A stretch of 44,113 nt of DNA from Dehalococcoidia bacterium (GCA_009692805.1 SHYM01000003.1:1-44113), one strand, 5' to 3'; numbered from the stretch's first letter, positions 3,099-15,202 are shown. The notes: generated by a model from the sequence alone, not told the origin. Numbers and translations are program-made.

Positions 3099-3304
3099 GC
3101 CTTCCACAAAAACCGCACCCTGCCGGAACGGAGGGAGTGCAGAGTCCCGACGTGTCGGGACTCTGCCGGGGGCCAAAGGGGGGTCCCCCTTTCTCCCTCT
3201 TTTATGTTACCCCCTTCCTGGCCAGGAAGGGGGCCAGGGGGATGGTCGGTGGCATCCTTGGGGCAGAGCCGGATCGAAGACAACGAGAGCTTTTCGTGCA
3301 TGTC
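3099..3304 (+). mobile_element. MITE-like composite palindromic repeat, copy A
   Basis: Long near-identity to 14980-15202 and reverse-complement similarity to 6425-6606 and 11510-11720; degenerate TIRs GCCTTCCACAAAAA...TTTTCGTGCATGTC; internal hairpins. Confidence 0.8.
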
Positions 3305-3344
3305 GCTCTCCGGCAGAGGGTGCGAGGGTCCATCGCGCCGCATC

Positions 3345-4340
3345 CTAGCGCCGCTGGAGGGCGCCGTCCAGGAGCGCCTGGGCCCGGGCCTCGTCGGGGG
3401 AGAAGCTGATGTAGAGCTTGTTGCCCAGGTTGGCGACGTACAGCCTCTGGGATCCCAGGCTGCGCGTGAAGGCCGGACCGCTCGGAAGCGCTGCCTCTTG
3501 TAGTCCCAGGCCGCCGGCTGCGGAGCGCAGGACGGTCCCTACCACCGACGCCGGCAGCCGCGCCGGCGCTACCACAATCCCCGCCGCGTGGTCCCCCAGC
3601 TGCTCCAGGTCTCCCAAGGTCGCCAGGGGCAGCCCCTCGGGGGCGTAGACAGCCACGGCCGCGCGGCTAATGCGGGCGCTGCGTATCCCCACCGCTACAT
3701 CGGCCAGCTCCTGGTTCCCCGTACGCTGGGCCAGGTGCTCCAGCACCGCCTCGCTCAGGCGGGCATAGGCCACGACGTCGGGCGGCGCCGCCGTCTGGGC
3801 GGGAAGCCACTGGATGACCTCCATCGCCTGAGGGTTGCGGGACGCAAACGCGACCAGCCCGTCGCGCTCGATGGCCGCCGCCAGGCCCGCCGCGGCCGTC
3901 GAGTCGCCCTGGACGACAACCACCTGGCGCCCCAGGGCCAGGGCGCGGCTTGTTCTCACCCCGAGCTCAGCCGCCGCCAGGCGCGCCGTCTGCTCGGAGG
4001 GCAGTTCCACCGTCGCGCCCAGGACAAGCTCGCCTTCCCAGGGCGCCAGCCAGACGGAGAGCGAGCCAGCTGGCACTTCCGCCGAGAAGCCCAACTCTCG
4101 TGCGACCGCGCCGCCGGTGGGCCCAACGATGTAGACAAAGGCCTCCAGCTCCACGTCGGGCACCCTGGCCTCCGCCAGACCGGCTGGGAACGACGCCGGC
4201 TCGGCGGGCTGCCCGATGCCGCAGCCGGCGGCGACGATGCTGATTGCGAGCAGCAGGGGGATGAGTCCCGAGAAGGGCGCGAGCCCCCTTCTCGGGCGGG
4301 GGGCCTTGGGGGGTGTCCCCCCAGCCAGCGCTTTGCTCAC
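3345..4340 (-). CDS. Hypothetical lipoprotein
   Basis: GTG at 4340 overlaps the mtnP stop (GTGA). Hydrophobic stretch LIPLLLAISIVAAGC ends in a lipobox-like AAGC. Host-like codon usage. Confidence 0.75.
   Translation of the reverse strand: MSKALAGGTPPKAPRPRRGLAPFSGLIPLLLAISIVAAGCGIGQPAEPASFPAGLAEARVPDVELEAFVYIVGPTGGAVARELGFSAEVPAGSLSVWLAPWEGELVLGATVELPSEQTARLAAAELGVRTSRALALGRQVVVVQGDSTAAAGLAAAIERDGLVAFASRNPQAMEVIQWLPAQTAAPPDVVAYARLSEAVLEHLAQRTGNQELADVAVGIRSARISRAAVAVYAPEGLPLATLGDLEQLGDHAAGIVVAPARLPASVVGTVLRSAAGGLGLQEAALPSGPAFTRSLGSQRLYVANLGNKLYISFSPDEARAQALLDGALQRR
4263..4324. repeat. REP-like double hairpin inside the lipoprotein CDS
   Basis: GAGT + 11-bp stem CCCGAGAAGGG/CCCTTCTCGGG + CGGGGGG + GGGGGG-TGT-CCCCCC; same architecture as the MITE core. 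Confidence 0.65.
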
Positions 4341-5203
4341 GGCAAGTACTTGCCGATGAGGGGCGCCAGCCGGCGCTTCACGTCCACCGGGATGGCCGCG
4401 GGCGCGGTGATGATGGCATTTTTGAGGGCGCTGGCGCAGGGGCAGGTGCGCGACGCCGGCAGATGAGGGATGGCGCGACGCAGCACTTCCTGGGAGACGG
4501 CGACGTTGCTCAGCAGGTTCTGCACCACCAGCTCCACCGACACCGGCTCCTCGCTCTCGTGCCAGCAGTCGTAGTCCGTGGCGCAGGCCAGGGTGGCGTA
4601 GCACATCTCGGCCTCGCGGGCCAGCTTCGCCTCTGGCAGCGCCGTCATCCCGATGACGCTGGCGCCCCAGGAGCGGTATAGGTGCGACTCCGCCTTGGTG
4701 GAAAACTGGGGGCCCTCCATCACCACCATGGTGCCGCCCAGGTGGGAGCGGGCGCCCGACGCCTGGGCCCCTTGGTGCAGCAGCGAGCGCAGCTCGGCGC
4801 AGAAGGGCTCGGCGAAGGCCACGTGGGCCACGATGCCGCCCTCGAAGAAGGTGCTGGGGCGCCCGCGGGTGCGGTCGATGAGCTGGTCCGGCAGCACCAG
4901 ATGCAGGGGGCGGATGCGCTCCTGGAGCGAGCCCACGGCGCTGACGGAGATGAGCCGCTCCACGCCCAACAGCTTGAGGGCGAAGATGTTGGCCCGCGCC
5001 GGCAGCTCGCTGGGGCTGAGGCGGTGGCCGACGCCGTGGCGCGGCAGGAAGGCGACGGCGACGCCTTGCAACTCGCCCAGGACGATGGCGTCGCTGGGCG
5101 GGCCGTAGGGCGTGTGGGGCCTGACCTGGCGGACGTCCGTCAGCCCCTCCAGGTCATACAGCCCCGACCCACCTATTATGCCGATACGAGCAGTGTCAGG
5201 CAT
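4337..5203 (-). CDS. mtnP: S-methyl-5'-thioadenosine phosphorylase
   Basis: IGIIGGSGLY, FLPRHG, MEGPQFSTKAES, VIGMT..PEAKLAREAE, TDYDCW. Confidence 0.97.
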   Translation of the reverse strand: MPDTARIGIIGGSGLYDLEGLTDVRQVRPHTPYGPPSDAIVLGELQGVAVAFLPRHGVGHRLSPSELPARANIFALKLLGVERLISVSAVGSLQERIRPLHLVLPDQLIDRTRGRPSTFFEGGIVAHVAFAEPFCAELRSLLHQGAQASGARSHLGGTMVVMEGPQFSTKAESHLYRSWGASVIGMTALPEAKLAREAEMCYATLACATDYDCWHESEEPVSVELVVQNLLSNVAVSQEVLRRAIPHLPASRTCPCASALKNAIITAPAAIPVDVKRRLAPLIGKYLP

Positions 5204-5253
5204 GATGTTTCAAAGCACCTGCCATCCAACAACCCAGCCTTGCTGACAGCTTT

Positions 5254-6324
5254 CTACCTGCCATGATCCTCCCCCATCACCAGCTTCAGCCCCTCGGTAT
5301 ACGGCTCCCTCACGACGCCCTTCTCCGTGATTATCGCCGATACGTAGCGGTGGGGCGTGACGTCGAAGGCGGGGTTGGCGGCGCGCACGCCCTCGGGAGC
5401 GATGCGTGCCCCCTGGATGGCGGTCACCTCCTCCTCGCCACGCTCCTCGATGGGGATGCGGTCGCCGTCGGGCAAACTCAGGTCGATGGTGCTGGTGGGC
5501 GCGGCGACGTAGAAGGGCAGGCCGTTCTCCTTGGCCAACACTGCCACCTGGTACGTCCCGATCTTGTTGGCGACGTCGCCGTTGGCGGCGATGCGGTCGG
5601 CCCCCACCACCACGCAGTCCACCTGCCCCCGGCGCATCAGGTGGCCGGCGGCGGTGTCGCTGATGAGGGTGACAGGAATGTTGTCCTGCATGAGCTCCCA
5701 GGCGGTGAGGGCCGCGCCCTGGAGGCGCGGGCGCGTCTCGTCGGCCCAGACGGAGATACGCTTGCCCTGCTCGACGGCGGCGCGGATGACGCCCAGGGCG
5801 GTGCCGTAGCCGACGGTGGCCAGAGCGCCGGCGTTGCAGTGAGTCAGGACGCGGGCGCCGTCGGGCAGCAGGGCGGCCCCGTGGCGGCCCAGGGCGCGGT
5901 TGGCGGCAACGTCGGCCTCGGCCAGACGTTGCGCCTCCGCCAGGGCCGCCTGCGCGATGGAGGCGGCGTCTGCGCTCCCTTCCGCCCGGCGGGCGGCCTG
6001 CATGACCTTGTCCAGCGCCCAGGCCAGGTTCACTGCCGTGGGCCGTGTCGCGGCGAGCTCGTCCCGGATGGCTTGCAGTCTCGCCAGGAGCCCCTTGGGT
6101 GGGTGATCTCGCAGCGAGCTTGCCCCCAGGGCGAGGCCGAAGGCCGCCGCCACGCCGATGGCTGGGGCGCCGCGCACCTGCATCGTCTTGATGGCGTGGG
6201 CCACCTGCTGGGGCGTCGTGAGCTCCATATAGACGACGCGGTGCGGGAGCTGCGTCTGGTCCAGCAGCCGCAGGGCCCCTCCCGGGCCAATCGAAGCGTC
6301 CCACTCCAGGGTGCGGAAGCCCAT
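5254..6324 (-). CDS. mtnA: S-methyl-5-thioribose-1-phosphate isomerase
   Basis: [64 protein letters not shown] at 6324 with GGGAG RBS. Confidence 0.97.
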
Positions 6325-6330
6325 CCCGAC

Positions 6331-14539: not shown

Positions 14540-14596
14540 GGCGCCTCCTGGTATCTCGTCTTATAGTCCATCCCATCTTGCGGCGAGGGGCACATT

Positions 14597-14848
14597 TTAT
14601 CGCCGGCTGCGGTCGCCTAAGAGCCCTAAGCGCCTGGCCAGGTAGGTCAGCAGGATAACGAAGCCCGCCAACAGCCCTACGAACGGCAGGAGGCTGGCGG
14701 AATGAAGCACCCCGGCCGTAAGAAAAAAGCTGGCGAAATAGGCGACGAGCCCGATGCCGGTGTACACCAGGTATTGCCTCCCCCGCCGCGGCCTCGCCTG
14801 ACCCTCCGGGGCCCTGGGCGCACGCCCTCCGCTATCCTCTTTGGCCAT
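14597..14848 (-). CDS. Small membrane protein, 83 aa, two TM segments
   Basis: Basic N-terminus then two hydrophobic helices; fills the gap between the SOS promoter and recA. Confidence 0.7.
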   Translation of the reverse strand: MAKEDSGGRAPRAPEGQARPRRGRQYLVYTGIGLVAYFASFFLTAGVLHSASLLPFVGLLAGFVILLTYLARRLGLLGDRSRR

Positions 14849-14919
14849 GGGCCCATCCTATCACGGCGCCCTCCTATTGCACGGCCAGGGTTTGCCTCAA
14901 CGTGCCGACGCCTGGAGTT

Positions 14920-14947
14920 ACTATAGAACAGCCGTCCTATTTGTCAA
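14920..14947 (-). promoter_or_regulatory. Promoter TTGACA-16-TATAGT overlapped by a LexA box AGAAC-agcc-GTCCT
   Basis: -35 at 14942-14947, -10 at 14920-14925. Box at 14925-14938 differs by one base from AGAAC-N4-GTTCT, and the flanks extend the symmetry (ATAG...CTAT). Confidence 0.75.
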
Positions 14948-14979
14948 GCCGCCACTTGTCGGGCTCGGGACGAGGGGTG

Positions 14980-15202
14980 GCCTTGCACGAAAAGTCGGTC
15001 AATGTAGCGGGAGTGCAGAGTCCCGACGTGTCTGGACTCTGCCGGGGGCCAAAGGGGGTGTCCCCCTTTCTCTGCTTTTATGTTACCCCCTTCCTGGCCA
15101 GAGCCTGCCCTGAGCCTGCCGAAGGGAAGGGGGCCGGGGGATGGTCGATGGCATCTTCAGGGAAGAGCCAGATCGAAGAAAACGAGACTTTTTATGCAAG
15201 GC
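14980..15202 (+). mobile_element. MITE-like composite palindromic repeat, copy D
   Basis: 17-bp TIR GCCTTGCACGAAAAGTC / GACTTTTTATGCAAGGC (15/17 match); colinear with copy A plus a 24-bp insertion at 15102-15125. Confidence 0.88.

Follow-up and report, generated by a model that had tools for sequence, protein, structure and literature searches.

Repetitive extragenic palindromes (REPs) that lack a transposase, like the small dispersed repeats of cyanobacteria, have long raised the question of how repeats of such short length multiply. Ssn nucleases bind hairpins of this type as single-stranded DNA and cut a few bases upstream, and in the available part of the paper that describes them the spread of the repeats is only speculated upon (Chenal et al, 2025; PMC11893778). 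Earlier work has described REPs that lie within small palindromes of a Chloroflexi genome (T. roseum GTAG-23), as well as tagged stem-loops, palindromic loop variants, and CGTC REPs without a dedicated transposase (Di Nocera et al, 2013; PMC3733652). The layout of the BoxC/PIT/TM_ECO intrastrand triplex motif has been defined as well (Holder et al, 2015; PMC4666352). Here, we analyze a 44,113-nt stretch of DNA from a Dehalococcoidia bacterium (GCA_009692805.1 SHYM01000003.1:1-44113, the window), in which four copies of one miniature inverted-repeat transposable element (MITE) differ by short segments, units i, ii, and iii (U1, U2, and U3). We show that these units are three families of very short stem-loop repeats existing independently of the MITE, that their presence is decoupled from the MITE backbone subfamilies, and that MITE genealogy by itself does not account for the mosaic. 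We propose that independent short stem-loop families are copied into hairpins and that the MITE then amplifies the composites, a reading to which we assign a probability of roughly 0.55.

The MITE copies and their variable segments

Direct reading and MAFFT alignment place four copies (A–D) of one MITE in the window, about 190–230 bp each, and the four copies and three indels named in a first-pass annotation of this DNA are all where it had put them. The features are:

3098–3305 (+): MITE copy A; unit i at the tip of hairpin 1, unit ii absent, hairpin 3 empty
3145–3160: unit i (U1), TCCCGACGTGTCGGGA, hairpin-1 tip of copy A
3210–3245 (+): hairpin 3 and G-rich tail of copy A, C9-loop6-G9-loop3-G9; host site of U3 in other copies
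6423–6609 (−): MITE copy B; carries unit ii and a plain tip on hairpin 1, and has lost the spacer that separates hairpins 2 and 3 (deletion at CCCCCTT)
6483–6517: hairpin 3 and G-rich block
6542–6551: plain hairpin-1 tip of copy B, GGGAGGCCCC; hairpin of −9.0 kcal/mol
6564–6578: unit ii (U2), CCCGCCGCAGGCGGG, copy B
11501–11508: 8-bp target duplication of copy C, TGCTGGGT
11509–11722 (−): MITE copy C; units i and ii
11566–11603: hairpin 3 and G-rich block
11653–11668: unit i in copy C, on the strand opposite to that in copy A
11681–11695: unit ii in copy C
11723–11730: 8-bp target duplication of copy C, TGCTGGGG
14978–15203 (+): MITE copy D; carries unit iii and, with one mismatch, unit i; left arm of an alternative form
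15021–15036: unit i in copy D, its single mismatch in the 3' arm
15086–15146: hairpin 3 and G-rich block
15102–15125 (+): unit iii (U3), AGCCTGCCCTGAGCCTGCCGAAGG, in copy D between CCTGGCCAG and GAAGGGGG

This four-copy pattern is far beyond chance. The genome (G000) is a metagenome-assembled genome (MAG) of 1.35 Mb in 86 contigs, 71% complete and assembled from short reads, in which an nhmmer search with the four-copy profile finds 172 matches at E<1e-3, 109 at E<1e-15, and 48 near full length. The terminal inverted repeats, GGCTTTGCAC at one end and GTGCAAAGCC at the other, are seen in the 48-copy alignment and in copies B, C, and D; the ends of copy A are degenerate. Target duplications measure 8–9 bp, and in one fixed register the 8-bp flanks agree with at most one mismatch in 11 of 38 near-full copies, four of them perfectly. 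The rny-ymdB spacer that holds copy C is empty in a genome of the sister genus (G001), whose RNase Y is 82% identical. The inverted ends, the target duplications, and the empty site thus make the element a true MITE, and A–D are non-coding copies of it built on three GC-rich hairpins.

U1 has the form GTCCCGA(C)-loop-(G)TCGGGAC, and the whole of hairpin 1 in copy A (3139–3166) reaches −14.0 kcal/mol when folded as DNA. U2 reads CCCGCC-TGC-GGCGGG; at its position copy A has AAC/AACG and copy D a different left arm. U3 consists of 24 nt, AGCCTGCC + CTGAG + CCTGC + CGAAG + G, which read as a tag of 8 nt, a 5-bp stem with a 5-nt loop, and a final G; its insertion point in hairpin 3 is CCAG^GAAGG. 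The first-pass annotation had also pointed out that copy B lacks the spacer between two arms: the junction, between hairpins 2 and 3, falls within the 7-nt direct repeat CCCCCTT, so that an ordinary direct-repeat deletion explains the loss.

The state of each site was counted over the 109 strong MITE copies, the denominators being the copies in which both anchors were found:

Left site, 56 scorable copies: U2 in 12, a long form in 3, a short filler in 41
Hairpin-1 tip, 83 scorable: plain GGG-loop-CCC in 49, U1 with loop TGC in 21, U1 with loop CGTG in 13
Hairpin 2, 86 scorable: plain in 63, a third U1 form (loop CCC) in 18, other in 5
Spacer between hairpins 2 and 3, 86 scorable: absent in 7
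Hairpin 3, 96 scorable: U3 in 8, of which 5 have the T-loop allele and 3 the C-loop allele
G-rich tail, 76 scorable: reverse-oriented U2 in its place in 7

Each unit thus occurs at two or more MITE positions. U1 and U2 take the place of segments of similar size, the former at hairpins 1 and 2 and the latter at its two sites; U3 alone is a clean addition, CCAG^GAAGG becoming CCAG-[24 nt]-GAAGG.

Two observations concern the surroundings of these copies. The left arm of copy D (14989–15010) reads AAAAGTCGGTCAATGTAG instead of ..GGCATCCTGCCGG.., and at least two further copies (C48:31505 and C21:8163) are alike. The block from 11736 to 14539 contains recA, rny (RNase Y), and ymdB in that order, and MITE copies lie in the spacers flanking it on both sides.

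The units beyond the MITE backbone

Seven markers along the MITE backbone are mutually associated (Cramer's V 0.4–0.85, in tests that count paralogous copies as independent) and define two subfamilies, whereas units and backbone markers are associated at a V of mostly 0.02–0.25, a conflict between unit presence and backbone of the kind that the first-pass annotation had suggested testing for. A single-nucleotide polymorphism (SNP) lying 10 bp beyond the right side of hairpin 1 follows the right arm over a distance of 100 bp (V 0.64, p 7e-4) and does not follow the type of the adjacent tip (V 0.18, p 0.38); U2 presence is likewise independent of the type of the neighboring hairpin 1 (V 0.02, n=49). 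The units are 93–99% identical among their carriers, and the right arms of these carriers are 70–77% identical, against 74.6% over all pairs. On a tree of the right arm (41 rows, 61 columns) the number of unit changes equals the shuffled expectation, for instance 14 against a mean of 12.5 for hairpin 1; this tree had no positive control, and we therefore rely on the marker associations instead.

Could the mosaic have arisen without any mobility of the units themselves? Each unit may have originated once in a MITE master copy and then been exchanged between subfamilies by recombination or gene conversion, to be multiplied by bursts of transposition. Some of the associations favor this history and tell against our proposal: the U1 of hairpin 1 is associated with that of hairpin 2 (p 1e-4), as is U2 with U3 (p 0.005), and the strongest link between a unit and the backbone, that of hairpin-1 type with the right arm, reaches V 0.46 (p 0.03), U1a occurring chiefly on backbone R1 and U1b on R2 (p 0.03). 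The association of U2 with reverse U2 (p 0.018) points the same way, loops are identical within a type (17 U1b tips, for example), and allelic cassettes would be expected to show replacements of the kind found at hairpins 1 and 2. However, with the tip independent of a SNP 10 bp away, recombination would have to involve double exchanges inside a span of some 20 bp; U2 does not follow the hairpin next to it; the arms of copies that carry the same unit are no more alike than random pairs; and all three units also occur outside the MITE, U1 abundantly in other families and U3 in other hosts and phyla. We consider this explanation unlikely.

In this genome, U1 has 83 sites, 22 of them outside MITE matches, exact U2 has 29 sites with 8 outside, and exact U3 has 10 with 1 outside; the units also occur in other genomes, and so are not private to the MITE, as had been anticipated. 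Several of the non-MITE U1 sites cap unrelated terminator-like hairpins with T runs after them. Most of the outside copies of U2 lie in the loop of a CTGAG-..-CGAAGG frame, which belongs to a family (GCCTGCC-CTGAG-x-CGAAGG) with other loops and at times a nested U2, and some MITE copies thus hold three levels of nesting. Over 31 genomes of the class, U1 is patchy, with 260, 86, 83 (G000), 31, 24, 12, and 11 sites and 0–2 in the rest, as compared with at most 3 in the reversed control; in the richest of these genomes (G029) the U1 stems are conserved and the loops widely variable. G001 has a related composite element with U1 at hairpin 1, and in one copy hairpin 2 has U1 as well; the stem base there (TCTG..CAGA) and the loop both differ, which makes this an independent junction. 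Rfam at gathering thresholds places no family at the units, either in the window or in eight loci with the U3 24-mer.

A MAG from short reads raises the question whether more than 100 similar repeats were mis-threaded through shared hairpin blocks, so that the mosaic would be an assembly artefact. The assembly is in 86 contigs, and in the best-matching runs every MITE interrupts the Logan contigs; over positions 2900–15400 of the window, the summed contig depth in MITE bins is 10–100 times that of the flanking genes (runs X1, X4, and X5, from freshwater and groundwater metagenomes), which indicates repeat blocks common to many community members. Nevertheless, multi-unit copies with perfect target duplications exist (C38:9260 and C5:1035, for example), the same units and the same nesting recur in the sister genus, and hosts of the 24-nt unit are found both empty and filled in contigs of 0.65–3.6 Mb. 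An assembly error, which the first-pass annotation had listed as a possible undoing of its idea, is therefore extremely improbable.

The 24-nt unit and how units might spread

U3 was followed by an exact-match scan of species-representative genomes, and the figures hold for the matches listed. The exact 24-mer is present in at least 119 contig stretches; by record titles, the matches listed comprise 53 from Acidobacteriota, 40 from Chloroflexota, 1–5 from each of 13 other phyla, and 6 unplaced. Single matches in other phyla could be binning errors. Among the matches listed, conservation outside U3 is confined to the 3 nt on its left (A 68%, G 58%, A 78%), with 0 nt on its right. Taking A as the first base of the unit, AG directly precedes it in 51 of 96 of these matches and AA in 15, with an AG background of 5.5%; the G that follows the unit was forced by the search pattern used for this count. 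Dehalococcoidia contigs contain a C-rich/G-rich/G-rich host motif in an empty form (..GGGGAAGG-TTAGG-ATGGGGG) and in a filled one, where the fill measures exactly 24 nt and is placed at either TTAG^G or GGGGAAG^G, depending on the copy.

The same 24-nt length and the same tag are found in a sister unit, AGCCTGCC+CCGTA+CTCGA+TACGG+G, which forms a Watson–Crick hairpin with the loop CTCGA or a similar one. Its eight copies in four loci (L022, L035, L070, and L079) lie after AG in 7 cases and before G in all 8, in hosts that resemble the triplex motif and in the loops of two other hairpins. The pattern GCCTGCCCTGAG-N4-8-GAAGG is found in 37 of 201 Chloroflexota genomes, with zero control matches in every genome. 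One loop variant of this U3 type usually dominates each genome; in G083 (15 of 15 loci fetched) and G187 (5 of 5) a single variant dominates because the unit rides in a local host repeat, which in G083 is unrelated to this MITE. Together, these data support the view that U3 behaves as a discrete insertion of 24 nt, placed preferably at AG^G, in hosts that are unrelated to one another and also exist empty.

In locus L070 (410–720), a tandem array with a 93-bp period was seen, each of its repeats consisting of the exact 24-mer followed by a CCCTCTCCC..GGGAGAGGG hairpin.

One could also view the units as functional hairpin caps, such as protein-binding sites or stabilizers of RNA 3' ends, that are under selection and are gained by ordinary mutation or conversion. 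The stem-loops have properties that would suit this role: U1 takes hairpin 1 from −9.0 to −14.0 kcal/mol, several U1 copies outside the MITE cap terminator-like hairpins before T runs, and in G029 it is the stems that are conserved. But convergence would not be expected to yield an exact 24-mer without standard self-pairing in two phyla, the fixed 24-nt length of two different units and their AG^G preference point to a defined copying step, and no Rfam family matches. Selected caps are, in our view, a very unlikely explanation.

We thus return to the copying of independent units as our preferred reading. The units would be copied into exposed single-stranded hairpin tips or loops, probably by nuclease-initiated templated short-patch repair or by copy-choice during replication. 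In this process U1 and U2 would replace the tip, whereas U3 would be added cleanly, and later transposition of the MITE would passively amplify each composite.

Which enzyme might initiate such copying? The best lead is a candidate single-strand nuclease of the Ssn type, a suggestion drawn from gene content and neighborhood. Besides UvrC, G000 has one GIY-YIG protein (PF01541), encoded by a small open reading frame (ORF) of 87 aa at C17:5206-5466 (E 1.2e-17). A U1 hairpin lies 30 nt upstream of its ATG, on one side only, and the chance of finding a non-MITE U1 beside this ORF is estimated at about 0.006 (22 non-MITE sites in 1.35 Mb). In G001, a homolog with 57% identity shows the same layout, with U1 at 25 nt upstream and another loop. 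A nuclease gene neighboring one of the motifs, which the first-pass annotation had advised looking for, is thus present beside unit i in both genera. Homologs accompanied by CTGAG..CGAAGG hairpins were found in three further genomes, on both sides of the gene in G026 and only upstream of it in G017 and G018. In G009, of the Dehalococcoidia class, a small GIY-YIG gene lies between inverted hairpins (C319, L260/L263, ~1407–1835) that match the Neisseria NTS consensus (PMC11893778) at 27 of 28 positions; this genome has 19 GIY-YIG matches, many with stop codons.

The 87-aa ORF itself (C17:5023-5600, outside the window) is enclosed by direct repeats of about 70 nt, which consist of the duplicated upstream region and the 5' part of tRNA-Asn(GTT). 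In the pseudo-tRNA copy, the U1 hairpin stands in place of the 5' strand of the anticodon stem, and G001 has the same layout. The locus has the appearance of a small cassette that became integrated at a tRNA gene.

Several observations weigh against the proposal. No unit movement was observed, the Logan contigs placed on 2900–15400 breaking at every MITE, and no orthologous MITE copies were found among metagenome contigs with RNase Y, the best relatives being at most 58% identical. U1 and U2 replace segments of similar size, and a simple insertion model therefore fails for them. The first-pass annotation had taken the segments for independently mobile inserts that target hairpins. In the first respect, this view fits segment iii, as a discrete 24-nt insertion at AG^G, and not segments i and ii, as replacements of hairpin tips; in the second, it proved stronger than the data, as targeting by U3 is a weak and only modest tendency. 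Among the matches listed, ungapped stems of at least 7 in its flanks occur in 25 of 120 cases (~21%) versus 9.8% of controls, and the mean of constrained folds is −9.27 versus −8.16 kcal/mol. U3 alone does not fold with standard parameters, and its CTGAG and CGAAG can pair only when two G-A mismatches are allowed. Backbone hairpin 3 is itself highly conserved, with 63 exact copies, and the uniformity of the units may hence reflect constraint and not youth.

The nuclease candidate has its own difficulties. NTS-like hairpins lie near only 2 of 18 GIY-YIG loci in G009; G029, with its 260 U1 sites and 84% completeness, has no GIY-YIG match; and the G012 homolog has no unit within 600 nt. A small GIY-YIG gene near the 24-mer was found in 1 of 119 loci among the matches listed, no more than chance. 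The published search string for Ssn-related motifs (SRM) gives 27 matches in G000 versus 21 in the reversed genome and so is not enriched; one of these matches contains U1, and none contains the CTGAG..GAAGG frame. The closest solved relatives of the 87-aa protein are the UPF0213 proteins 1zg2 and 1ywl. The link between U1 and the nuclease is thin, amounting to one orthologous locus in two genera.

Alternatively, the units could be classical REPs mobilized on single-stranded hairpins by an IS200/IS605-type Y1 transposase (REP-associated tyrosine transposase, RAYT). U3 would fit such an origin, with its tag and hairpin, fixed orientation, short target preference, and lack of target duplication, all of which are features of Y1 "peel and paste" elements (PMC11893778). 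The distribution of the enzyme does not agree. The Y1 transposase domain PF01797 was not found in G000 (71% complete), in G001, or in G012 (90% complete, with 86 U1 sites), and none of the four Y1 loci of relatives carries U1, U2, or U3. Among the 201 Chloroflexota genomes, Y1 is present in 22 of the 37 with U3-type units and in 68 of the 164 without, a tally that takes in G171 and G067, both Y1-positive and unit-negative; the genomes richest in U3-type units (G166 with 41, G187 with 17) have no Y1. On direct reading, the terminal GTAG tag is absent from U1, U2, and U3 with their flanks. Mobilization by Y1 thus appears quite improbable.

A bolder and more doubtful version of the copying proposal, which we put forward tentatively, would count the 24-nt tag and hairpin units among the smallest trans-mobilized DNA elements known. 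A single-strand-specific nuclease, either an Ssn-type GIY-YIG protein or an unrecognized enzyme, might cut and paste or copy them into AG^G of exposed hairpin or triplex-motif DNA. The system would be common to Chloroflexota and Acidobacteriota, and U1 and U2 would be spread by the same machinery as tip replacements. U3 is in any case a sharply defined substrate: its length is fixed at 24 nt, it has a tag and a hairpin that covaries, it prefers AG^G, and its hosts occur empty and filled in the same genomes. The candidate partner gene makes the question of unit spread testable at the bench. The units also fill intergenic DNA of uncultured Chloroflexota and Acidobacteriota and break short-read assemblies, and a grammar of such units aids annotation. 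Such short repeat units may also seed spurious ORFs.

Comparison with known systems

The first-pass annotation had regarded the inserts as its best candidate for an undescribed system. Here it went too far, since REPs nested in palindromes or lacking a transposase (PMC3733652) and Ssn-related motifs (PMC11893778) are already known from what is available of these two papers. The units belong with REP-like repeats without a known transposase, such as CGTC-type REPs and Ssn-related motifs, and thus to a known kind. Six 17–18-mers of the CTGAG..CGAAGG family were printed nowhere in the literature searched, supplements being outside that search.

With respect to the host site, the layout C9-loop-G9-loop3-G9 is common to the BoxC/PIT/TM_ECO triplex motif and to MITE hairpin 3 with its tail, a likeness of layout judged from sequence alone, and the Dehalococcoidia hosts of the 24-nt unit have it as well. 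The MITE stem CCCCCTTCC, however, does not fit the CCCTCNCCC of the motif as given in the accessible part of its description. The TM_ECO pattern taken from there, CCCTCNCCC-N3-6-GGGNGAGGG-N3-GGGNGAGGG, has only 3 matches in G000, which does not make the MITE a member, as compared with 56 for the C9-N6-G9-N3-G9 version of the MITE.

Elhai's small dispersed repeats of 2008 are reportedly units of about 20–27 nt that insert into other repeats and have no known enzyme. In these respects they may resemble the units here; the phylum and the sequences differ.

Y1 elements are on paper similar to the units in being defined by a hairpin, in inserting beside a short target without target duplication, and in being orientation-specific; unlike them, the units have no Y1 transposase linked to them. 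To our knowledge, a 24-nt unit with a single hairpin is also far below the known minimal Y1 elements.

REPs, bacterial interspersed mosaic elements (BIMEs), and the GTAG and CGTC stem-loops (PMC3733652; REPINs, PMC3116915) share with the units a tag at one end, loop variants that can be palindromic in their turn, nesting in palindromes, and a patchy distribution, as far as the available parts of these sources describe them. In contrast to these repeats, the tag of U3 is AGCCTGCC and not GTAG or CGTC, no RAYT was found for the units in the genomes searched, and the units sit in the hairpins of a MITE with terminal inverted repeats and target-site duplications, where they replace tips.

Finally, Ssn-related motifs (NTS/SRM) resemble the units here in being short hairpin repeats with tens to hundreds of copies that are near-identical in distant phyla. 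The likeness seems to extend to the gene, a nuclease of about 90 aa with an adjoining hairpin, here the U1 that lies 25–30 nt upstream in G000 and G001. Unlike those motifs, the units do not fit the published SRM string, and U1 is found on one side of the gene only. The accessible portion of the Ssn paper (PMC11893778) shows cleavage and not the spread of repeats, and within that portion there is no mention of nesting in MITE hairpins or of a tagged 24-nt AG^G unit.

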